DNA from: Bdellovibrionales bacterium
Lineage (GTDB): Bacteria > Bdellovibrionota > Bdellovibrionia > Bdellovibrionales > JAUICD01
Direction: 5' to 3'
NCBI GenBank assembly: GCA_965203275.1
Contig: OZ241865.1
Coordinates: 1,280,001 to 1,344,000, forward strand
DNA length: 64,000 nt
Shown piece by piece: positions 880-61,948 of this stretch (the first letter of the stretch is position 1; each line of letters begins with the position of its first letter). The position numbers were made by a program, and so were the translations under genes. The notes below the pieces were generated by a model. It was not told the origin of the DNA. It did not search any database and worked only from the letters and a program-made list of their open reading frames with translations.

Positions 880-3729
880 TTATCTTCGACGACCACCTTG
901 CCCTTGTCGGACACGACCTCTGGAAGAACCTCTCCTTTGATAAGAACCACCTTGTCTACCTCTTTGGTAACTTCCACCTCTTTGATTATAACCACCTCGT
1001 TGACGGTTATAACCACCTCCTCGATTATAACCACCTCTCTGGCCACCTCTTCCTCTACGATTATAACCACCACTACCTCTAGGTCCTCGCCCTACAGCCC
1101 CAGGAGAGTACAAGCTTCCACCGCCATATTGGACCTGATAGAGCTTACGTGTTAGCTCTTGAATTTCCATTTGTATTGAATAAGCTGTTTGTTGTCTGGC
1201 CATTTGATTGGCTTGCATTTCTCTTTGCATATCCATCAGGCGTTGATGGTATTCCATCTGCATTTGCATAGCACCATACCCTCCGCCTAGACCCCCGGGG
1301 TACATGCCTGGGGCACCGGCCATACCAAGCCCCCCGCCACCAAAGCCACCGAATGGACTTCCCATTCCATAAGGAAAGCCTCCTCCACCCATGCCAAAGC
1401 CTCCGTGTAATCCGCCACCAAATGGGTTACCAAAGGGACTTCCTATTCCGTAGGGGGAACCTCCACCCATGCTAAAGCCTCCGTGCAATCCGCCACCAAA
1501 TGGGTTGCCAAAGGGACTTCCTATTCCGTATGGGGAACCTCCGCCCATGCTAAAGCCTCCGTGTAATCCGCCACCAAATGGGTTACCAAAAGGACTTCCT
1601 ATTCCGTATGGAGAACCTCCGCCCATACCAAAGCCTCCGTGCAGTCCGCCATAGAGAGGGCTAAAGCCAGGGTTGCCAAAGGGCATGCCAAAGCCAGGCA
1701 TACCAAAGGCTCCATGTAGACCACCCCTCATACCTAGACCGGGGTAGCCATACGGCATAGCTGGCATGCCGTAGGGGTTGATCATGCCGTGTGGTCCCAT
1801 GCGGTACATACCACCAAAGCCGGGGTAGCCAGCAGCACAGCCAAATCCAGAGCCGGCGAACATAGAGCCGTAGAGGACACCTGCTGTCAGTCCAAAGCTA
1901 GGGACAGGGTAGGGTGGGGCGGGTTGATTGATTGTGCGGGCAAAAGCTGAGGCTCTTGAGTGTTGTTTGTGGCCAAAGTAAGCTAGCCCTCCATCAATGA
2001 GGCCTGCAGCGATGAGCTTAGCCCAAAAGCCTTTGCCATGACTAGATTGATGGCAATCTACACAGTGGTAATAGCCATCTCTGTTGGGGTTTTCTCTATA
2101 TGTTCTTTGTCCTCGCCCTCTTCTTCTAGTGGTTCTTTCTCTTGTTCTTTCTCTTCTTCTTAATTCACCTACTCTATTTTTGCATAGACGATCTTCCCTT
2201 TTAAGTCTTTCATATTCTCTTAAAGTATCTTCACAGTCTTCATAAAACTCACTATCTCTTTGAATCCAACCTTTGGCTTTGAGTCCTCTACATATTTCAC
2301 TGACAGTGAGGGTTTTGCAATTAGGTGGTTCAGGAGGGGGGACATTTCTCTCTGGACAAGTTCCTGGGGTTCTTGGAGGAGTTTCTGGTCTTTCAATAGG
2401 ACATACTGTTCCACTTGTTCCTCCTGTACATTCTCTTGTTTCTTCAGCACAAGGGCATTGATTGGTAGGGCAATTTGCTGTTTCTGTTGCTTCACATGGT
2501 GGACATGGCTTTTTACAATCAGGATTTCTGTCACAAAGTTGTCTACAAGCATCTGACATAGTTCCTTCAAAAGGAGTACCAATCAAACGACACCTACAAG
2601 ACATACAATTTGGTGGAGGAGGTGGACCGGCAGTACTACCACCAATTGGATTTTCTATAACACATAATTCTCTACAAGTACCAGTTTGACATTCCTGTTG
2701 GCTTTTTGATGAGTCTGTTTGACATTGACTTATACATTGCTGACAATTTGGTGGTAGAGTAAAAGACTTTTTTACTTCTTCTTCTGGTGCTGGCTCTGGC
2801 AGAGGTGGTGCTACTACTGGTGGAGGTGGTGCTGGCTCTGGCAGAGGTGGTGCTACTACTGGTGGAGGTGGTGCTGGCTCTGGCAGAGGTGGTGCTACTA
2901 CTGGTGGAGGTGGTGCTGGCTCTGGCAGAGGTGGTGCTACTACTGGTGGAGGTGGTGCTGGCTCTGGCAGAGGTGGTGCTACTACTGGTGGAGGTGGTGC
3001 TGGCTCTGGCAGAGGTGGTGCTACTACTGGTGGAGGTGGTGCTGGCTCTGGCAGAGGTGGTGCTACTACTGGTGGAGGTGGTGCTGGTGGTGTTGAGCAA
3101 TCAGAATTATTGTTCATACACCAATTTTGACAGTCAAAATGATCTTCTCGCTGTTGTGGACATGTAGTGTTAATACATGTCTGACATTTAGCAGAGTTTA
3201 CTCCTGCGAAGGGTGCATCTCCTGTTGGTGGTGTAACCTGTGTGTCTGCAAAGGTAGGGGGGATAAAAAGATCAGCTAGAGCAGGGAAGATTTCAGAAAT
3301 ACTCGGTACTTGTCCAAAGATACCATCTCCACTACTCCTTCCAGAAGGACCATCTGGTGGATTGCAACATATTCTATTTCTTTGCAAAATATCATCTAAA
3401 GTTTGTTCATACTCACATCCTTCTTTTGTAAATCCATGGTCAAAATCAATGCTTAACCCTTCTTCAATAATGTTTCTTTCTTCTGCAAGGTTGTCGTTTA
3501 TTTCATCACAATCATCTTGAACATCATCAGATGTTTCACGATCACGTCCAGGTCCCCGAGGATGGGAAGGACAAGCACCAGCCCCCATACTCACTCCTCC
3601 AGGATAATAAGGGTAATATCCCCACACATCTAGTGGTATCAATAAAATCAAAATAAAAACCCAATATCTCAAAAAAATACACTCCTTTTTATTGTTTTGT
3701 TTTTTTTGTTTTGCTTTGTTTTCGCTCAT
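880..3729 (-). CDS. Secreted Cys-rich / Pro-repeat / Gly-rich low-complexity protein
   Basis: 949-aa ORF with an N-terminal hydrophobic segment, CxxC clusters, a Pro repeat, a Gly-Phe-Met-rich region and an RGG-rich tail. Confidence 0.8.
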   Translation of the reverse strand: MSENKAKQKKQNNKKECIFLRYWVFILILLIPLDVWGYYPYYPGGVSMGAGACPSHPRGPGRDRETSDDVQDDCDEINDNLAEERNIIEEGLSIDFDHGFTKEGCEYEQTLDDILQRNRICCNPPDGPSGRSSGDGIFGQVPSISEIFPALADLFIPPTFADTQVTPPTGDAPFAGVNSAKCQTCINTTCPQQREDHFDCQNWCMNNNSDCSTPPAPPPPVVAPPLPEPAPPPPVVAPPLPEPAPPPPVVAPPLPEPAPPPPVVAPPLPEPAPPPPVVAPPLPEPAPPPPVVAPPLPEPAPPPPVVAPPLPEPAPEEEVKKSFTLPPNCQQCISQCQTDSSKSQQECQTGTCRELCVIENPIGGSTAGPPPPPNCMSCRCRLIGTPFEGTMSDACRQLCDRNPDCKKPCPPCEATETANCPTNQCPCAEETRECTGGTSGTVCPIERPETPPRTPGTCPERNVPPPEPPNCKTLTVSEICRGLKAKGWIQRDSEFYEDCEDTLREYERLKREDRLCKNRVGELRRRERTRERTTRRRGRGQRTYRENPNRDGYYHCVDCHQSSHGKGFWAKLIAAGLIDGGLAYFGHKQHSRASAFARTINQPAPPYPVPSFGLTAGVLYGSMFAGSGFGCAAGYPGFGGMYRMGPHGMINPYGMPAMPYGYPGLGMRGGLHGAFGMPGFGMPFGNPGFSPLYGGLHGGFGMGGGSPYGIGSPFGNPFGGGLHGGFSMGGGSPYGIGSPFGNPFGGGLHGGFSMGGGSPYGIGSPFGNPFGGGLHGGFGMGGGGFPYGMGSPFGGFGGGGLGMAGAPGMYPGGLGGGYGAMQMQMEYHQRLMDMQREMQANQMARQQTAYSIQMEIQELTRKLYQVQYGGGSLYSPGAVGRGPRGSGGYNRRGRGGQRGGYNRGGGYNRQRGGYNQRGGSYQRGRQGGSYQRRGSSRGRVRQGQGGRRR
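1390..1650. repeat. 78-bp coding tandem repeat (~3 copies, GGLHGGFxMGGGSPYGIGSPFGNPFG)
   Basis: Visible in both DNA and protein. Confidence 0.9.
2785..3087. repeat. 42-bp perfect coding tandem repeat (7 copies, APPPPVVAPPLPEP)
   Basis: Unit tggtgctggctctggcagaggtggtgctactactggtggagg repeated. Confidence 0.95.
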
Positions 3730-6299: not shown

Positions 6300-6454
6300 A
6301 TTAAACCCCTTATTTAATATTTAAAATAAATAGACCTACAAAAGTTTTTATATCTACTTATATTATCGATTATAAATAGAAAAAACTTTAAAGATTCTGT
6401 AAGATTTTGATTTTTTCAGATTAAAGTACCCATTTCTCCACTTTAGTCGTGGTC

Positions 6455-7256
6455 TGTTTCACTCAAAATGAGCCACACTTCTGGTGTGTTTTTGGGCATT
6501 GCTCTGACAGCTATCGCTGTCTAAAAAGAGCAATGTCTCAAAAGTCCGTTTACTTTTAGTAGGAAGGATCCCTCTTGCTTTTTAACACAATGTTAAGGAA
6601 AAAGAGTTTCATTTGTAAACCCGGTTGCTCTTGAGACAATAAAAGGACTTTTTCCTTAACATGATGTAAAGGAATAAAAGGATCCTCCTCTACTCAAAAT
6701 AAATGAATTTTCTAGGCAGTTAGCCTTTGATGACGGCGTGAGCCGTCGGGCTAAACAGCTTATTTCCTTACCATGATGTTAGGAGACGAAGATATCCTCT
6801 TTACTCAAAGTGAACAGGCTTTTGAGACAATGACCATTTTGTCAAAGGCGAAAGCCTTTGCGGTCATTGTCCAAAAGTGGCCAGAGGCCAGTTCACTTTG
6901 AGTGAAACAGAGGTGTGGTTCATTTCAAGTGCAAAAGACGGCATGATTTATTTTGAGTGAAATGTTAAGGAAAAAGTTCCTTTCTTTTTGTTTTTTTATT
7001 CTCTTTTAGATTTTGCGTAAACTCAAACAAGAAGTAATTAAAATGAGAATGGGGCAGTGGGAGACTGAAGATCTTCCGCAAATTGAGCTTGCTCCTTGAA
7101 GGCAAGCTCAATTGAGGACTTCGGAAGGCTCCCACTGCCCTATTCTCAATTAAAAACAAGATGGAAAAGCAGAATCGAAGGGCGGTGGGTGGGGTTAGGG
7201 ATCATCCTTCTGATGCCTGACTGCCGGATCCCAGATAAATTACATGTTAAGAAAAC
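6455..7256. repeat. Repeat mosaic: A(+)-B-A(-,partial), A(-), stacked ends, C (6963-7201), D
   Basis: Direct reading of the module sequences. Confidence 0.9.
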
Positions 7257-8009: not shown

Positions 8010-8539
8010 ATACTTGCACCTTTGATGATGGAAAATTCAAATATCCATGGAAACTCAATGGCATCTTCCAAGGCTCCTTACCTGAATAAACCAATACAGG
8101 AATTACCAAAGAAGGCACTTTATTTTTACCCTGTTTACTATCTTTTTCATAAATATTAGCTTGGTAATTGAGCATCTGGATAAAAACACTAGGGTCGTTA
8201 TAAGACTTATGCTCAAAAAGAAAAATAATCTCAACCATCTGCCCTGTTTTCAGTTTAACAGAAAAAATCACATCAGCCCGACGCTCTCTAAAAGCCTTAT
8301 CTATAAAAACAGTCACTCTAGATTGCAAAGTACTCCAATCAAAAAGTTCAAATTCCTCTGAAGTTAAAACCAAACGGAATAAATCTAAAATATATTGTTC
8401 CTTGCTGTAAACTTCATAAAATAAATGGTCAAATAAATGTAAGACATCACGCTTAAAACCTTTTTTGTTCTTTTTAAGATGTTTGAATTTTTTAGACATA
8501 ATCACTCCTTATGTGTTTTTGTTTCAGTAAAAATAGTCT

Positions 8540-9956: not shown

Positions 9957-10080
9957 TCCGGGATCCGGGATCCCGGGAATCGGGCAACCCGGCAACAGGC
10001 AGGAGTGAAGTGAACATCTTGTTTCCTTAACATTTCACTCAAAATGCATCATGCCGTCTTTTGCACTTGAAATGAACCAA
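9957..10080. repeat. D heptamers plus stacked module ends
   Basis: 10021-10079 is nearly the reverse complement of 6918-6973. Confidence 0.85.
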
Positions 10081-12571: not shown

Positions 12572-12890
12572 ATTTCACTCAAAATGCATCATGCATTTTG
12601 AGTGAAATTTTAAGGAAAAAGATTTCCTTTTTTTATTTTTTTATTCTTTTTAGATTCTGCGTAACTTTCAAAAAAAATATAAATGTTATGAGTGGGAGGC
12701 GGAGGCAGGCTGGAGATCTTCCGCAGACCCGCTTGCTCTTTAAAAGCAAGCGAAGGTTGAGGACTTCGGAAGCCTGCCTCCGCATTCCACTCATAAAAAA
12801 CATACAAATAGGAAAGCAGAATCAAAGGGCGGTGGGTGGGGTTAGGGAGTTTGGTTTACTTTTAGTGAAACTAGACCACTTTTAATGAAC
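12572..12890. repeat. Palindromic A-end dyad, module C (12609-12848), stacked ends overlapping the mnmG stop
   Basis: TTTCACTCAAAATGCAT-C-ATGCATTTTGAGTGAAA, then the C stems. Confidence 0.9.
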
Positions 12891-28029: not shown

Positions 28030-28491
28030 CAGGCTAACTGCCTCAAAAGCCTGTTCACTTTTAGGAAGGAGGATCTCCTCATTTCTTAACACGATGTTAA
28101 GGAAAAAGGAGTTTCTTTTTTTGTTTTTTTATTCTCTTTTAGATTCTGCGTAATTTTCAAAAAAGCATGAATATTATGAGTGGGAGGCGGGGGCAGGCTG
28201 GAGATCTTCCGCAGACCCGCTTGCTCCTTAAAAGCAAGCGAAGGTTGAGGACTTCGGAAGCCTGACTCCGCATTCCACTCATAAAAAATATACAAATGGA
28301 AAAGCAGAATCGAAGGGCGGTGGGTGGGGTTAGGGAGTTAGCTGTTTCACTCAAAGTGAACTGGCCTCTGGCCACTTTTGGGCAATGACTGCAATGGCTT
28401 TCGCCATTGGCAAAATGGTCATTGCCTCAAAAATCTATGCATTTTGAGTAGGGCGAATCTCCTTGCTTCTTGACACGATGTTAGGGAAACA
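28030..28491. repeat. Repeat mosaic: partial A, C (28095-28336), chimeric A (28343-28491)
   Basis: Direct reading; lies between convergent genes. Confidence 0.9.
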
Positions 28492-30592: not shown

Positions 30593-30954
30593 TTTCACTC
30601 AAAATGCATCATGCCTCTGGCATGTTTTTGGACAATGACCGCAATGGCTTTCGCCATTGGCAAAATGGTCATTGCCTCAAAAATCTATGCATTTTGAGTA
30701 GGGCGAATCTCCTTGCTTCTTACACCATGTTAGGGAAAATTTCTTTTATTGCCTCAAGAGCAAGCGGGCTACAATAAAGGAGTTTTTTCCTTAACATGTA
30801 GTAAAAAAACGAAGGTTTCCTCCTTACTAAAAGTGAACAGGCTTTCTAGGTTGCCAGCATTTGAGAAGGCGGTAGCCTTCGGCTGGCAACCAGAAAGTGA
30901 CCAGAGGTCAGTTCACTTTGAGTGAACCAGAGGCATGATTTATTTTGAGTGAAA
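30593..30954. mobile_element. A-B-A composite (30593-30927) plus a stacked end supplying the fumC stop
   Basis: Two different A arms in inverted orientation joined by B. Confidence 0.8.
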
Positions 30955-54343: not shown

Positions 54344-55230
54344 TTTCACTCAAAATGAGCCACATCTCTGTTTCACTAAAAGTGGTCTGACCTCTGGTCA
54401 CTTTCTGGTTGCCAGCCGAAGGCTATTCGCCTTCTTAAATGCTGGCAACCTAGAAAGCTTGACCACTTTTAGTAAGGAGGATCCATTTCTCATTTAACAC
54501 CATGTTAAGGAAAAAGTTCTTTCTTACACCTTTTGACCACGATGGCTTTCGCCATCGGTAAAATGGTCATCACCTAGAAAGCCTGACCACTTTTAGTAAG
54601 GAGGATCTCTTCGTTTCTTAACACCATGTTAAGGATTTGTTTCACTCAAAATGCATCATGCCTCTGGCATGTTTTCTGGCAGTTAGCCCAACGGCTTATC
54701 GCCGTTGATCAAAGGCTAACTGCCTAGAAAATCCATTTATTTTGAGTAGGGAAGGATCTTCTCGTCTCTTAACATGATGTTAAGGAAACAGTTCCTTCTT
54801 ACACCTGCTTGCCTGATGCCGGATCCCGGGATCCCGGATCCCGGAAAAAATCAATTTTAACTTTAAGTGTTTTTACACAACTTGTATAAATAAGCTCCTA
54901 ATTGATCAGCTTGTTTTGCTAATTCCATACAGCCACTAAATTCCAAGTCTAGTATTGCCTGAACTGTTTTTCACTAAAAGTAAACTAGCCGTCTTTTGCA
55001 CTAAAAGTAAACTGACCTCTGGTCACTTTTGGGTTGCCAGCCGAAGGCTATTCGCCTTCTTAAATGCTGGCAACCTCAAAAGTCCGTTTACTTTTAGTAG
55101 AGGAGGATCTCTTCGTTTTTTGACTACATGTTAAGGAAAATGTCCTTCTAATGGCAGTTAGTCCGACGGCTTATCGCCGCCGATCAAAGGCTAAGCTGTT
55201 TCACAGTGGTCTAGCCTCTGGCTACTTTTT
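54344..55230. repeat. Large repeat mosaic: three full A copies (54369-54514, 54638-54790, 54999-55140), partial copies, D tract, stacked ends
   Basis: Direct reading of the module sequences. Confidence 0.9.
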
Positions 55231-55342: not shown

Positions 55343-56416
55343 ATGACAGAGAGAATTTTATTACAATTAACAATAGATGCTATTTTCAAGGCTTTTTTTG
55401 AAAATAGAAAAGATCTTTTAATTTCACTGGTAGAGAATTTTGTACCTTTGCCTAAGGGTTCTGTGATAGAGGATGTTTCATTATTAAACACAGAGCTTCT
55501 TCCCGATAAGGTTCCAGACGAATACAAATCCTTTACTTTAGATTTGCGTGTGAAATTAAGAAGACAGGTCAGAGGCGTTCTTCAAGATACAGATATTGTC
55601 CATGTAGAAGTTCAAACAACAAGTCAAAAATTTTTTACAGATCGGATATTAGTTTATGCTTCTAGGGCTTATTCTGGTCAGATAAAGAAAGGCGAAGATT
55701 TTAATCAATTACTTCCTGTGTATTCACTTGTTTTTACAACAGCTAATTTAAAAGAATTTGCAGGGATAAAGGATTACTATCATATCTGCAATATCCGTCG
55801 GACAAAACCACCAGAAGTGATTATGTCTCGTGGATTGTGTTTTGTCATTGTGGAATTAGGCAAGTTTCAGTCAAGTTTGCATGAATTATTTGACAAAAAG
55901 GCAGATTGGTGTTATCTTTTAAAGAACTCTGGTAATATGGATTTAAAGGAGTATACCAATTTTCAAAACAAGGGAGGTATTATGGCAGAAGCAGCAAAGC
56001 ACTTATGGATATTATCAAAAGATGAGACATTACAGGAACTTGCAATGGTGAAAGAGAGAGACAGAAAAGATCAAGCAGCCAGAGAAGAGGGTGCTTATGA
56101 AGAAGGAATGAAGAAAGGGATGAAGAAAGGTCGTAAGGAAGGAATGGAGGAAGGAATGGAGAAAGGAATGGAGAAAGGAATGGAGGAAGGAATGGAGAAA
56201 GGAATGGAGAAAGGAATGGAGAAAGGAATGGAGAAAGGAATGGAGAAAGGAATGGAGAAAGGAATGGAGAAAGGGATGGAGAAAGGGATGAAGAAAGGTC
56301 GTAAGGAAGGAATGGAGAAAGTGGCACAAAATATGTTGAAAGAAAATCTCAATATTTCATTGATTTCTACAATGACAGGTTTATCCAAAGATGACATTCT
56401 CAAGCTGAAAAAATAA
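55343..56416 (+). CDS. Rpn-family PD-(D/E)XK nuclease with GMEK repeats
   Basis: DAIFKAFF, LDLRV, HVEVQ, DRILVYAS; SD GGGAGG upstream. Confidence 0.9.
   Translation: MTERILLQLTIDAIFKAFFENRKDLLISLVENFVPLPKGSVIEDVSLLNTELLPDKVPDEYKSFTLDLRVKLRRQVRGVLQDTDIVHVEVQTTSQKFFTDRILVYASRAYSGQIKKGEDFNQLLPVYSLVFTTANLKEFAGIKDYYHICNIRRTKPPEVIMSRGLCFVIVELGKFQSSLHELFDKKADWCYLLKNSGNMDLKEYTNFQNKGGIMAEAAKHLWILSKDETLQELAMVKERDRKDQAAREEGAYEEGMKKGMKKGRKEGMEEGMEKGMEKGMEEGMEKGMEKGMEKGMEKGMEKGMEKGMEKGMEKGMKKGRKEGMEKVAQNMLKENLNISLISTMTGLSKDDILKLKK
56101..56321. repeat. 12-bp coding tandem repeat (GMEK/GMEE/GMKK, ~18 units)
   Basis: ggaatggagaaa repeated. Confidence 0.95.
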
Positions 56417-56421
56417 TTTGC

Positions 56422-56838
56422 TCAAAAGTAGCCAGAGGATTATCCCTAACCCCACCCCCCACCCTTTGATTGCTTTTTTCACTCAAAATGAACTGGCCTC
56501 TGGCCACTTTTGGGTAGCCAGCCCGACTGCTCACGCCGTCGTAAAAAGCTGGCTACCTCAAAAGCTTGTTCATTTTGAGTAGAGAAGGATCTCCTCATTC
56601 CTCTACACCATGTTAGGGAAAAAGTGCTTTTATTACCTTAAGAGCAAGCGGTTTACAAATGAGGGACTTTTTCCTTAACATGTAGTTAAAAAACGAGGAG
56701 ATCCTCCTTACTAAAAGTAAACGGATTTTTGAGGCATTGCTCTTTTTGGACAGCGATAGCTGTCAGAGCAATGCCCAAAAACAGCCAGAGGCTGGTTTAC
56801 TTTTAGTGAAACAGAGGCTGGTTTATTTTTAGTGAGAA
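56422..56838. mobile_element. A-B-A composite (56477-56813) with flanking fragments
   Basis: Two different A arms joined by B. Confidence 0.8.
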
Positions 56839-56852
56839 TAAAAGGAGGCGTT

Positions 56853-57167
56853 ATGGCAGAGGCAGCAAAGCACTTATGGATATTATCAAAAGATGAGACA
56901 TTACAGGAACTTGCAATGGTGAAAGAGAGAGACAGAAAAGATCAAGCAGCCAGAGAAGAGGGTGCTTATGAAGAAGGAATGAAGAAAGGAATGAAGAAAG
57001 GAATGGAAAAAGGGATGGAGAAAGGGATGGAGAAAGGTCGTAAGGAAGGAATGGAGGAAGGGATGGAGAAAGTAGCACAAAATATGTTGAAAGAAAATCT
57101 CAATATTTCATTGATCTCTACAATGACAGGTTTATCCAAAGATGACATTCTCAAGCTGAAAAAATAA
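56853..57167 (+). CDS. Stand-alone RpnS-like protein (copy of the Rpn C-terminus)
   Basis: SD AAAGGAGG plus ATG; near-identical to 55982-56416 but with fewer repeats. Confidence 0.75.
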   Translation: MAEAAKHLWILSKDETLQELAMVKERDRKDQAAREEGAYEEGMKKGMKKGMEKGMEKGMEKGRKEGMEEGMEKVAQNMLKENLNISLISTMTGLSKDDILKLKK

Positions 57168-57171
57168 ACTG

Positions 57172-57940
57172 CTCAAAAGTGACCAGAGGTCAGTTTACTT
57201 TTAGTGAAACAACTATCCCTAACCCCACCCGCCACCCTTCGATTCTGCTTTCTCATTTTGTTTTTACTTGAGGATGAGGGCAGAGGGAGCCTTCCGAAGT
57301 CCTCAATTGAGCTTGCTTTTAAGGAGCAAGCTCAATTTGCGGAAGATCTCCAGTCTCCCTCTGCCCCCATCCTCCCCTAAATGATTTTTTATTTGAGAGT
57401 TACGCAGAATCTAAAAAAAATAAAAAAACAAAAAATACTTCCTCCGGGATACGGAATCCCGGGATCCGGGATCTGGGATCCGGGATCTGGCAAGCCGGCA
57501 TCAGATCCCGGGATGCCAGATTGCTTGATCCCGGATCCCGGGAGTAAATGTTTTGTTTCCTTAACATGGTGTTAAGAGAAAAAAGGATCCTCCTCTACTC
57601 AAAATAAATGAATTTTCTAGGCAGTTAGCTTTTGATCGACGGCGGTAGCCGTCGGGCTAACTATTAGAAGAATGTTTTCCTTAACATGGTGTTAAGAAAC
57701 GAAGAGATCCTCCCTACTCAAAGTGAACAGGCTTTTGAGACAATGACCATTTTGTCAAAGGCGAAAGCCTTTGCGGTCATTGTCCAAAAGTGGCCAGAGG
57801 CCAGTTCACTTTGAGTGAAACAGAGGTCAGTTCATTTTGAGTGAAAAAAATTGAGGACTTCGGAAGGCTCACACTGCCCTATCCTCAAATAAAAATAAAA
57901 TGGAAAAGCAGAATTGAAGGGCGATGGGTGAGGTTAGGGA
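57172..57940. repeat. Repeat mosaic: A end, C(-) 57216-57435, D tract 57444-57543, two A(-), partial C
   Basis: Direct reading of the module sequences. Confidence 0.9.
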
Positions 57941-57978: not shown

Positions 57979-60147
57979 TTAGGGGGTGGGGCCGGGAAGT
58001 AAATCTTGTCTATCTTGAGGATGCCAACCTTTACTATCATACGGAAGTTGTCTATTATGATTTTGACTCCCTCTTATACAACAATGATGGTCACTTTCTG
58101 TTTTTACCTCATACACATCTGTAGTATTGCTTGACAGCTTAAATTTGAAAGGGTCATAAAAAGTAAAGTCATGCCAGTCCGTTCTACCATAGTGGTCTAA
58201 ATCCTCACAATCTTTTGTATAACAAGCATCGAGACGGCTTGGACACATATTATTGTGAAGATCGTCATTGTCTTCAAGATACTGTTGTTGACCTGTCCAA
58301 CCTGCTAATTTAGCAGCAGTGGCACAAGTAGGGTAACATTCACCAGCACTAGATACATATTTATATCCAGGAGGACAATCTCTTTTGTAAGCTCGTCTGC
58401 AACATTTATCTTCTACAGCACCTTTAATTTCCAAAACATTCCAGGTCTGTCTATCAACATCGCAATAATCCCCAGTTTGTGTTTCAACTAAGAGAGCTTT
58501 TGCAGTTGTTTTCTCAAACACCATACAACGTGGAAGGCATTGACTCCCACCTACAGGTGTAGCATAGCCTGCAAGTATTTGCTCCTGAGTACAAGTAGCA
58601 TTCACATCTTCCTCTCCCTCCTCAGATGATGATGCAGTGGAGGTGGGGCTAGATGAAGAAACGGGTACACAACCATTAGCAGCACTTGTTCCACATCCAG
58701 GGTAGTAAGGTATTGACGGTTGACCAGGAGGTCTTGGACGGGTATATATCCATCCATATTTATTTACAGAAGCTTGAGGTGTTGCACCTGATGAAGAACT
58801 TTGCATAAAGAAGGCATCCTCAACTCCCCTAACCCCTGTGCCTACTTCAGAAGATTCATCGTTACTTCCAGATCTTCCAGTGGTCGTAGATGTTGTTGAA
58901 TCTGTGCTAGATTCTGCCGGGTCAGGACTGGCCTGCCATGTTGTTGTACCTTTACCATGAATGATTTGAACTGTTCTTACGATAGCTTGATTATTAATTA
59001 AGCATTTATATGCAATGCGATCGGTCTCAACCTCTTCGACAGTTGCACAGTTACCAGTGCATGCATACCCCCAATTAGGGTCTCCACCTGAGCCTTTTTG
59101 TAAAATTTGTACAACACGATCCATAAATCTCCAGTTTTCATTTGTGTGTTGAGCTTGATCTGTTATAGTGTTTTGATGATGTTTAAAAAATGTATTAAAC
59201 TCTTCTTCATACTGCTGTCTTGTCATATCTACAACCCTCTCCTGCTCATTAGGGATATTACATCTGCCTGGGCAAGCTTCACTGTTAGGATCCTCAGAAC
59301 ATGACCTAACAATTTCACAACAACAGTTCTCTTTACAATTCTCATCCTGTGAACATTCACTACCATCAAAGTTATCTGAAGCCTCAAAATTGAAAACACA
59401 ACCATTCCCCTTTGTGCTAGGTAATTTGACTAACACCAGCTCAGATCTTTCTCTTATATTGCCTGCATGACCAGCAGGAAGTCTCTTTTTAACAAGACCT
59501 GACACCATTAAGCCAATCACATCTCCAGAGCGAAGCACTAAATTTTCTAGTTTTGAAGCCTCTGTACGTCGACCCAATGATAATCTTTTATTTGGTACCC
59601 ATCGATAATCATATAAATTTTTGATATTCTCAGCATCTAATGTGTGACAAGCCTCACCCTCTCTCATATAATCATAAGTAGCAGCAACAGACTCATCGTC
59701 ATTTAGCTTTACTAAAATCCATGGATTGCCTTCGACTTTTACATCCATATTAGGAAGTGATAAAGACGGCCATTGACCTAATTGAGTATGATCAATGCAA
59801 ATTTGTCCATTTTTTTTAATCTCTATTTTTGTTATTTTAGATGTTTCAGGCCACTTTCCTACAATTGGTTCGCCTCCCGGCGGTCCCTCATCCCCTGGAG
59901 GGACTTCAACACCAGGATCGTCTATATCTTTATCAGGGTCAGGAGGATCAGGGTCAGGGAGAACAGTATCACCGGGGCGATCTGCGGCACGATTAGAAGG
60001 ATATTCAGACGATTCTTCCCCTCCTAAAAAAGAACAGTTCATAAACATCAAAAGGCTTGCAATACTTGTTAGGCTAAGAGCCATTAATACTTTTTCTTTT
60101 TGATGATTACGTTTGACTGGAATTTTCATTTTAAATAACAACCTCAT
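57979..60147 (-). CDS. Cys-rich lipoprotein
   Basis: LMFMNC lipobox-like site, many paired Cys, Ser/Thr linkers; start uncertain. Confidence 0.8.
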   Translation of the reverse strand: MRLLFKMKIPVKRNHQKEKVLMALSLTSIASLLMFMNCSFLGGEESSEYPSNRAADRPGDTVLPDPDPPDPDKDIDDPGVEVPPGDEGPPGGEPIVGKWPETSKITKIEIKKNGQICIDHTQLGQWPSLSLPNMDVKVEGNPWILVKLNDDESVAATYDYMREGEACHTLDAENIKNLYDYRWVPNKRLSLGRRTEASKLENLVLRSGDVIGLMVSGLVKKRLPAGHAGNIRERSELVLVKLPSTKGNGCVFNFEASDNFDGSECSQDENCKENCCCEIVRSCSEDPNSEACPGRCNIPNEQERVVDMTRQQYEEEFNTFFKHHQNTITDQAQHTNENWRFMDRVVQILQKGSGGDPNWGYACTGNCATVEEVETDRIAYKCLINNQAIVRTVQIIHGKGTTTWQASPDPAESSTDSTTSTTTGRSGSNDESSEVGTGVRGVEDAFFMQSSSSGATPQASVNKYGWIYTRPRPPGQPSIPYYPGCGTSAANGCVPVSSSSPTSTASSSEEGEEDVNATCTQEQILAGYATPVGGSQCLPRCMVFEKTTAKALLVETQTGDYCDVDRQTWNVLEIKGAVEDKCCRRAYKRDCPPGYKYVSSAGECYPTCATAAKLAGWTGQQQYLEDNDDLHNNMCPSRLDACYTKDCEDLDHYGRTDWHDFTFYDPFKFKLSSNTTDVYEVKTESDHHCCIRGSQNHNRQLPYDSKGWHPQDRQDLLPGPTP

Positions 60148-60843: not shown

Positions 60844-61811
60844 AAGTAAACTGACCTCTGGTCACTTTTGGACATTGCTCTGACAGCTATCGCTGTCCAA
60901 AAAGAGCAATGTCGTTGGTTCACTAAAAGTGGTCTGACCTCTGGTCACTTTCTGATTGCCAGCCGAAGGCTATTCGCCTTCTTAAATGCTGGCAACCTAG
61001 AAAGCATAACCACTTTTAGTAGGAGGATCCTTTCCTCTTTTAACATCATGTTAAGGAAACAGAACTTTATTCGCAAACCGCTTGCTTCTGAGGTAATAAA
61101 AGAAATTTTCCTTAACATGGTGTAAAAGAATAAAAGGGTCCTCCTCTACTCAAAATGCATAGATTTTTGAGGCAATGACCATTTTGCCAACGGCGTAAGC
61201 CGTTGCGGTCATTGCCCAAAAACATGCCAGAGGCATGATGCATTTTGAGTGAAATGTTAAGGAAAAAGTCCTTTCTGATGCCGGGTTGCCAGATCCCGGA
61301 TCCCGGGTGAACACAATGTTAAGGGTTTGTTTCACTCAAAATGCATCATGCCTCTGGTTCACTAAAAGTAAACTAGCCTCTGGCTACTTTTGGGTAGCCA
61401 GCCCGACGGCTCTCGCCGTCGATCAAAGGCTGACTACCTCAAAAGCTTGTTCAATTTTAGGAAGAAGGATCACCTTGCTTTTTAACATGATGTTAAGGAA
61501 AAAAGATTTCCTTTTTTTTGTTTTTTTTATTCTTTTTTAGATTCTGCGTAATTTTCAAAAAAACATAAAATTTATGAGTGGGAGGCGGGGGCAGGCTGAA
61601 GATCTTCCGCAAATTGAGCTTGCTTTTAAGGAGCAAGCTCAATTGAGGACTTCGGAAGCCTGACCCCGCATTCCACTCATAAAAAACATACAAATGGAAA
61701 GGCAGAATCAAAAGGGTGGCGGGTGGGGTTAGGGAGTTTGTTTCACTAAAAATAAACCAGCCGTCATTTTCACTCAAAATGAATTGACCTCTGGACGCTT
61801 TTAGTGAAACA
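60838..61811. repeat. Repeat mosaic: partial A, A-B-A (60918-61254), D, A (61358-61503), C (61491-61735), stacked ends
   Basis: Direct reading; lies between convergent genes. Confidence 0.9.
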
Positions 61812-61948
61812 ACATAGATTGTCTAAAATTCTGCCACAAAAACAAAAACCTAGTGGCACAAAATCTCTTTCGACTCATAACCTACTGATTTTACTCAACT
61901 TTATTTTGCAGGCTATCAAACTCAGGAATCAAAAAAAGATTAAACACG

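Follow-up and report, generated by a model that had tools for sequence, protein, structure and literature searches.

A hairpin-forming DNA repeat joined by its left end to the hairpin loop of other copies in a Bdellovibrionales genome

Organization of the locus

The window, by which we mean the whole 64,000-nt stretch of DNA analysed here, is part of a single-contig genome (G000) of 2.57 Mb with 35% G+C. It carries stacked and tandem copies of a hairpin-forming unit of ~145–165 nt, hereafter repeat A. The outer helix of the unit, P1, has 14 bp. Inside it lie the hairpin P2, which is short (xxGCC-TCT-GGCxx), and the long arm P3-P4-P5. The P1 inverted repeat is internal, with the tail and its two small hairpins, P7 and P8, beyond it on the 3′ side. 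The left end of a copy is called its head, and what remains of the start of an older copy in front of a new head is called a leader. The features on which the analysis rests are as follows, in window coordinates.

6908–6942 (−): two stacked leaders, one joined at 23|24 (GCC|GTCTTTTG) and one at 27|28 (CTCTG|TTTCACT), with a complete copy next
30927–30951 (−): leader ending CCTCTGG, new head next
54344–54370 (+): 27-nt leader, positions 1–27 of an older A copy, ending CTCTG in the P2 loop, as read from the sequence
54371–54535 (+): complete newer A copy, with TTTCACT straight after the leader and a long tail ending CTTACACCTTTTG
54536–54639 (+): 5′-truncated A unit (model positions ~43–145) after the preceding tail, then TTTG
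54640–54807 (+): third complete A copy, in tandem; joint TTAAGGA+TTTG+TTTCACT at 54629–54646
54967–54998 (+): second joint type, leader cut after GCC (position 23) plus GTCTTTTG; next head at 54999
55343–56416 (+): neighbouring gene for an Rpn-family PD-(D/E)XK nuclease ("putative transposase"; PDDEXK_2, TIGR01784), a candidate enzyme only
56812–56834 (−): leader ending CCTCTG, new head next
57821–57843 (−): leader ending CCTCTG, new head next
61333–61357 (+): leader ending CCTCTGG, new head at 61358
61736–61774 (+): second joint type, GCC|GTCATTTT+CACT, then a foldback mini-unit to ~61812
Exact 12-mer joint CTCTG|(T/G)TTCACT: 54366–54377 (+), 61352–61363 (+), 6901–6912 (−), 30921–30932 (−), 56805–56816 (−) and 57814–57825 (−)

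The truncated unit at 54536–54639 is not the remainder of the copy that left the leader at 54344, because its P1 3′ arm mismatches that leader.

Several other repeats share the window with repeat A. Foldback mini-units (window 61764–61812; genome 760188–760262) run from the head through the P2 loop and continue as a reverse-complement head, the two parts sharing a 7–8-nt joint. A second module of ~235 nt has a central hairpin between G-rich ends and frequently adjoins tails and heads of A (57213–57440 on the minus strand, 61502–61737 on the plus strand, 12616–12851 and 28104–28339). Runs of short repeats of the GGATCCCGG type form a third module (54808–54850 and 57455–57545) and often end in the tail hairpin of A. 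A tandem of period 21 nt, repeated 13 times (2743–3129), lies inside a 949-aa ORF on the minus strand (880–3729).

Parts of the window are also present in 14 public sequencing runs, among them runs labelled sponge metagenome (shares 0.20–0.35) and runs of two organisms (shares 0.49–0.70). The contigs of four runs (X1, X9, X10 and X13) break at repeats, for instance at 54373, and the joints there derive from other repeat copies. The unique gene flanks show no differences from X9, X10 and X13, and four differences in 288 letters from X1.

Abundance and fold of repeat A

With a single copy as query (window 54366–54535), the genome gave 1,074 matches, 736 of them full length, which are dispersed round the entire chromosome and divided evenly between the strands (519 and 555 copies). 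A profile built from the 736 copies recovered 2,285 whole or partial matches at E ≤ 1, amounting to 166 kb or 6.5% of the genome. No orientation bias was seen in any of 26 chromosome bins. Since the GC skew is almost flat and does not locate the replichores, this result is uninformative on the replication strand.

The stems vary in sequence among copies while pairing is kept, with 93% Watson-Crick pairs and compensating changes, and hardly any variation is seen in the P2 loop and at a few junction letters. Among stem mismatches, G-T (419) and A-C (409) are about equally frequent, and a search of the entire window returned no Rfam match at gathering score. Because of these two observations, A looks like a DNA palindrome rather than an RNA gene. 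Repeat A is a lineage-restricted, non-autonomous, hairpin-forming DNA repeat with more than 1,000 whole or partial copies, and we read it as a novel form among the REP/REPIN/MITE-like mobile repeats.

Left ends join at one place in the P2 loop

The sequence-only reading had pointed to six junctions of the form CTCTG|(T/G)TTCACT at which a new left end meets the P2 loop of an older one. All six are exact. With up to one mismatch allowed, the 12-mer joint has eight matches in the window against 0.90 expected (100 shuffles, largest 4), the two additional matches being GTCTG followed by a head at 6452 and 7632. The placement in the P2 loop was also right: exchange occurs between G27 and G28 of the hairpin xxGCC-TCT-GGCxx.

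Genome-wide, 99 profile matches end precisely at model position 27, the G of CCTCTG. A regular expression finds 163 loop joints, consisting of 130 CTCTG|TTT-CACT, 20 CTCTGG|TT-CACT and 13 other forms, and these comprise 102 distinct pairs of older and newer variants, 35 resident variants and 146 distinct upstream 20-mers. An IUPAC pattern for the joint matches 165 times in this genome, 18 times in G001, a genome of the same genus, once in G004, and never in G002 or G003, two relatives that lack repeat A. As a control, the same pattern read backwards has no matches, and the joint in the opposite orientation (CCAGAG followed by a head, as the loop would read on the other strand) is absent from the genome. 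Joining is therefore position-specific and strictly orientation-specific, with 165 cases one way and none the other. The specificity also lies in the loop and not merely in a short motif, as no heads are assigned by profile hits to model positions 36–38 (CTTTTG|G), a closer match to GTTTG, whereas the same assignment places 99 at the P2 loop.

Stacks with up to three or four different leaders occur. A heads also join older copies at a few further discrete positions, mostly at helix boundaries. The roles of individual variants are one-sided: CCCT-AAAATTGAACT is incoming in 59 joints and resident in eight, and AAAAATAAACC and CAAAATGCATC, with 20 and 18 cases as residents, respectively, are never incoming. 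One A variant bears a leader on 59 of its 78 heads. Incoming and resident variants were not separated by their within-variant identity, taken as a test of age.

A second joint and the left flank

A second recurrent joint, GCCGTCWTTTKCACT, had been proposed for four places in the window, and it is exact at each of them: 6928–6942 (−), 10053–10067, 54988–55002 and 61760–61774. One near match lies at 59756 (−); the chance expectation is 0.01. This joint corresponds to the P2 loop cut at its 5′ edge, C23|T24, and occurs in 75 cases genome-wide. At the loop, then, either the TCTG of the resident is kept (27|28, 163 cases) or the letters of the incoming copy are kept after GCC (23|24, 75 cases). Because the letters of either partner can survive, the second joint is the same site at its other edge and not an unrelated site.

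Concerning the bases ahead of left ends, the sequence-only reading cited four ends in unique DNA preceded by YTG. The trinucleotide stands at all four (CTG at 6451, 7631 and 28340; TTG at 8010 on the minus strand), but the flank at 28340 belongs to another repeat module and not to unique DNA. Genome-wide, most heads have T-Y-T-G in front of TTT-CACT; among 698 heads for which no A part was recognised upstream, the letters are T (.60), Y (.86), T (.80) and G (.56). The motif is element-borne in many joints. The idea of a YTG-like target holds in part: such letters belong to the target at the P2 loop and at a GTTTTG pre-existing in 10 intact paralogs, but GTT(T)G often arrives with the incoming head. 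Joints elsewhere in older copies are of the latter kind: GTT(T)G comes with the head, and no motif is common to the cut sites in the residents. Some left ends abut truncated genes with no YTG there.

Tail-to-head tandem joints, of which there are 84, read TTAAGG(A)+GTT(T)G+TTTCACT. Wherever GTT(T)G follows the tail hairpin, a head comes next in 84 of 85 cases, and the GTT(T)G letters therefore belong with the head. One circularly permuted A unit, inserted at TG|AG, suggests a circular or tandem intermediate.

Insertion, replacement and recombination

No target-site duplication had been visible in the window, and this is borne out by every filled/empty comparison, which leaves at most one ambiguous G. 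At genome position 759643, a resident leader is followed by a whole incoming copy and then by the remainder of the resident; the P1 and P2 arms match across the insert, and nothing is duplicated. Some joints, at least, therefore arose by genuine insertion of a complete copy into an older copy. In 23 of the 163 joints, an orphan P1 3′ arm that matches the leader and belongs to no other head lies 180–260 nt downstream, compared with 8.6 ± 2.5 for permuted leaders (maximum 17 in 300 permutations). The strict remainder, defined as the P2 3′ arm plus the TTTT at the start of P3, is found in only two of the 52 joints whose stems are distinctive enough to test, and most joints lack the rest of the older copy.

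Other loci point to replacement. Loci 3088 and 2354669 have both flanks in common: one holds an intact copy, and the other holds the first 27 nt of that copy followed by a different complete copy, with an identical right boundary. In this paralog pair the resident body was replaced by the incoming copy. Replacement also occurs outside the repeat: within a family of 28 copies of one flank, 10 are intact, seven have a head directly after the pre-existing GTTTTG, and 10 have a head ~47 nt further on; where both flanks are readable, A replaces 4–47 nt without duplication.

Recombination between existing stacks has also contributed. Up to the loop, locus 7540 is the same as locus 2446, and from there onwards it is the same as locus 1231; the crossover lies inside the shared CCTCTG. 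In addition, identical composites of leader and element recur at several loci. For both reasons, the 163 joints are an upper bound on the number of independent events. The proposal that the stacks are built by insertion of new ends into older ones is accordingly upheld for the clean nested case and is consistent with the 23 joints with a matching arm, but most stacks are replacements or recombinants, not simple nested insertions.

Occurrence in related genomes

Among 201 genomes of the same order, the A family was found in three: this one, G001 and G004. Between the ribosomal protein genes S17 and L14, G001 carries four tandem units at 700–1490 of the locus, each made of an A copy on the minus strand and 37 nt of the 3′ end of S17. 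The same site is no more than a 20-nt spacer in G000, at 1478–1502 of the corresponding locus, and is without an A copy in G003, giving an orthologous pair of filled and empty sites. The G001 array also shows growth by duplication of the element together with its flank.

Contig C11 of G004 has the S17-L14 insertion (2950–3660 of the locus) as in G001. Its L14 is 98% identical to that of G001, but its identity to the L14 of G003, a genome assigned to the same genus as G004, is only 76%; the occurrence of A in two genera is therefore doubtful. Those contigs of G004 that bear A may have come from a G001-like organism as contamination, and the family may be confined to one genus.

Search for a mobilizing enzyme

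The sequence-only reading had likened the joints to HUH chemistry of the IS91 or IS200/IS605 type. The behaviour fits in position, orientation and lack of duplication, but no Y1 or IS91-type gene was found. The Y1_Tnp profile (PF01797) has no match in G000 and matched in six of 14 control genomes, and tblastn of this genome with the TnpA of G001 gave a best E-value of 0.24. That TnpA, of IS200 type, is the only one in G001, and no A match lies in its 3.4-kb locus or within 1.5 kb of it. The profiles Y2_Tnp and Zn_Tnp_IS91 (PF04986 and PF14319) likewise returned nothing, with weak controls (PF04986 matched no control, and PF14319 none above cut-off). The genome has no match to RVT_1 (reverse transcriptase) or DEDD_Tnp_IS110. 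The sole match to PF07282, a zinc ribbon in a 1,365-aa ORF, was set aside. Only two tyrosine recombinase genes are present, and four resolvase-like ORFs and genes of IS256 type and IS4/5 type all lie kilobases from A copies.

Proximity draws attention to the Rpn family of PD-(D/E)XK nucleases. The genome has 37 such ORFs, of which 92% have an A match no more than 100 nt away, compared with 18% of all ORFs. As an autonomous core of repeat A the Rpn-like genes were rejected: 13 full-length copies have common promoter regions but no common A-derived ends. G003 has 16 Transposase_31 genes and no A element, and the single Transposase_31 gene of G004 lies 3.4 kb from two A copies with transporter genes between. 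RpnA has been described as a non-specific endonuclease (PMC5350276), and Rpn proteins have been described as toxin-antitoxin defence genes and argued not to be transposases (PMC10400941). A short ORF in the window (56855–57168 on the plus strand) matches only the C-terminal tail of the Rpn-like gene at 55343–56416, has runs of GMEK/GMKK-type four-residue repeats, and resembles the separately translated RpnS antitoxins of PMC10400941.

Another gene family also neighbours the repeat. An 11-member family of secreted proteins (genome 2512136–2514877 and 10 paralogs), with tandem units of ~58 residues resembling helix-turn-helix, lies within 100 nt of A in 82% of cases. The multi-copy ORFs without a Pfam family (fam7, fam12, fam17 and fam28) were set aside; judged by eye, their translations resemble secreted proteins and not nucleases.

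Comparison with known mobile repeats

Repeat A resembles single-strand, orientation-specific elements that make no duplication (IS200/IS605, IS91 and REP-RAYT) in its behaviour; the likeness is partial, in that membership in the Y1 groups fails on the defining enzyme, and no IS91-type enzyme was found with profiles whose controls were weak. Elements of the IS91/ISCR/Helitron type insert directionally beside a CTTG/GTTC-like tetranucleotide without duplication, have a hairpin on the 3′ side, form head-to-tail tandems and carry flanking DNA along, and their one-ended events delete or replace adjacent DNA. Repeat A has several of these traits, namely the lack of duplication, the tail hairpins P7 and P8, 84 tail-to-head joints and, in G001, a 37-nt S17 flank repeated four times. 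It differs in being only ~150 nt long, and a Y2/Rep gene was not found with PF04986 and PF14319, whose controls hardly matched.

IS200/IS605 elements insert beside a short motif on one strand without duplication, lack terminal inverted repeats at their extreme ends, and have subterminal hairpins and circular single-strand intermediates. Repeat A is like them in the absence of duplication, the lack of inverted repeats at its extreme ends, the hairpins near its ends and one circularly permuted copy, and in part in the short motif beside its left end. Unlike them, it has no TnpA, its loose T-Y-T-G motif is often element-borne, its two exchange points lie 4 nt apart, and no replication-strand bias is detectable, the GC skew being flat. 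The family, with members such as IS608 and ISDra2, and its short derivatives are treated in PMC6006769.

The REP, BIME and REPIN sequences with their RAYT (TnpA-REP) enzymes (PMC3116915, PMC2817692 and PMC3333891) are similar to A in being abundant intergenic palindromes that are non-autonomous and form mosaic arrays, and are thought to be handled as folded single strands without target duplication. The abstracts of these papers mention no nucleotide-precise joining of a left end into the apical loop of another copy. The units also differ in size and shape, since A has 145–165 nt with three nested arms and two tail hairpins and REP has 20–40 nt. Unlike REP-RAYT systems, the genome of A has no RAYT or Y1 gene.

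IS1397 is an insertion sequence that targets REP hairpins. ISPpu9, of the IS110 family, similarly to A lands at a fixed place in a palindromic repeat (PMC12288879 and PMC8450116). Both are autonomous insertion sequences acting on a different repeat family, whereas the target of A is its own family, and the genome lacks an IS110 gene. Two other classes were considered and rejected. A classical DDE MITE does not fit, given no duplication in filled/empty pairs, a P1 that is internal with the tail outside it, and IS256 and IS4/5-type genes far from A. The attC sites of integrons form an array beside the integrase gene and exchange at G|TT of a GTTRRRY core; A is dispersed over the chromosome, its head GTTTCAC misfits that core, and only two tyrosine recombinase genes are present. 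A limited, abstract-level literature search returned no publication on a bacterial repeat that inserts into its own hairpin loop.

Discussion

The recurrent loop joint points to a precise DNA cutting-and-joining activity. The account we favour, and to which we give about an even chance of being right, is that A is a non-autonomous repeat that targets itself, with a P2 loop imitating the left junction of the element, and that a putative strand-specific activity makes the joints. The left end of A is joined, in one orientation and without duplication, in the apical P2 loop of resident copies at G27|G28 or C23|T24. The loop TCTG occupies the place that GTTG or GTTTG of the element holds before TTTCACT, so that each resident copy offers a look-alike of the left junction. 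Insertion of a whole copy at the loop is seen in one clean case; more often the part of the resident from the loop to the right end is missing, leaving a 23- or 27-nt leader. Leaders accumulate in stacks, and the composites are copied on and reshuffled by crossover in the conserved loop. The chemistry would be a strand-specific nick-and-join at T-Y-T-G on single-stranded DNA presented by the hairpin, like that of IS200/IS605, IS91 or REP-RAYT, and the enzyme would either lie outside those families or no longer be encoded in the genome. Counting against this account, a single-site HUH nick does not predict that the loop can be cut at one edge or the other. No candidate HUH, reverse transcriptase or IS110 gene was found, and there are only two tyrosine recombinases. 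Incoming heads that bring GTT(T)G to other resident sites, left ends without YTG at truncated genes, the recombinant origin of one stack, the lack of an orientation bias and the outcome of the age test also weigh against it.

The two-edged outcome is in keeping with the main rival, an account without a dedicated transposase, which we consider possible but rather unlikely. Here the hairpins would stall or break replication, and a 3′ end in ...TCTG would prime at ...GTTG or GTTTG before TTTCACT of another copy by microhomology template switching, with Rpn nucleases possibly making the breaks; the copied stretch would end at the end of the element, and the resident body would therefore be replaced. 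The overlap of TCTG with GT(T)TG lets the 4–5 letters of either parent survive, and both outcomes are seen (163 and 75). Heads join at several helix boundaries as well, other rearrangements such as the foldback mini-units have 7–8-nt microhomology, and the equal G-T and A-C mismatches with 93% Watson-Crick stems are as expected of arms corrected by template switching. The 37 Rpn-like ORFs, 92% of them ≤100 nt from A against 18% of all ORFs, and the non-specific endonuclease activity given for RpnA in PMC5350276 also agree with it. However, position 36 offers a better microhomology, CTTTTG|G, that goes unused, and the clean exact-ended insertion and the exact common right boundary look site-specific. 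The account also leaves unexplained how A arrived at unique positions, for example in the 20-nt spacer that separates two ribosomal protein genes and is filled in G001. A part for Rpn is weakened by the secreted repeat-protein family, which is almost as near to A (82% ≤100 nt), by G003 with its 16 Transposase_31 genes and no A, and by the argument in PMC10400941 that Rpn proteins are not transposases. We think it improbable that A is the DNA partner of the Rpn/"transposase_31" PD-(D/E)XK nucleases or of a wholly unrecognised enzyme, in which case the nuclease would open the P2 loop on one strand and the ...TCTG 3′ end would be joined to another left end by strand transfer or GTT(T)G priming. 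It is similarly improbable, in our judgement, that a few founder joints gave rise to all 163 through copying of composites and shuffling of leaders by crossover or gene conversion in CCTCTG, with no repeated targeting of the loop. Locus 7540, with its 2446-type left and 1231-type right parts and a crossover in CCTCTG, the identical composites at several loci, the leader on 59 of 78 heads of one variant and the growth of G001 arrays by tandem duplication of element and flank are all in keeping with a founder origin, yet 102 pairs and 35 resident variants would require very frequent exchange over 6–7 nt of identity. Stacks of three or four different leaders, the presence of the joint in G001 with diverged copies, the strongly one-sided roles of variants and the one clean nested insertion also speak against it.

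The two remaining explanations invoke familiar classes. True membership in the IS200/IS605 or REP-RAYT group, with a Y1 HUH transposase moving A as a PATE- or REPIN-like element, would account for the lack of duplication, the fixed orientation, the hairpins near both ends and the T-Y-T-G left flank, and one IS200-type TnpA does exist in G001. We nevertheless regard it as very unlikely: Y1_Tnp is absent here by profile and by tblastn, the TnpA gene of G001 has no A within 1.5 kb, the unit measures 145–165 nt and not 20–40 nt, and no orientation bias was seen, with a flat GC skew. The elaborate conserved fold with compensating stem changes might instead recall a structured RNA gene or a retro-element copied from RNA, which is hardly credible given zero Rfam matches at gathering score, G-T and A-C mismatches in equal number (419 and 409), equal strands (519 and 555) and no reverse transcriptase found.

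If a dedicated activity makes the joints, the system would be one of mobile DNA with nucleotide-precise specificity for a hairpin loop and no recognisable transposase. Self-targeting would steer new copies into existing junk and away from genes and, if true, would explain how more than 1,000 copies are tolerated in a 2.6-Mb host-associated genome. It would also supply a defined substrate with which to look for the enzyme, namely a 13-nt hairpin whose cut is mapped. Should the reading with an Rpn or wholly unrecognised partner enzyme be true, it would mean hairpin-guided DNA movement without HUH, DDE, serine or tyrosine chemistry. Even on an ordinary reading, repeat A preserves a clear record of how mosaic arrays of palindromic repeats arise in bacteria: a copy inserts into a loop, the interrupted remainder is lost, composites are copied, and crossover takes place in the conserved loops.
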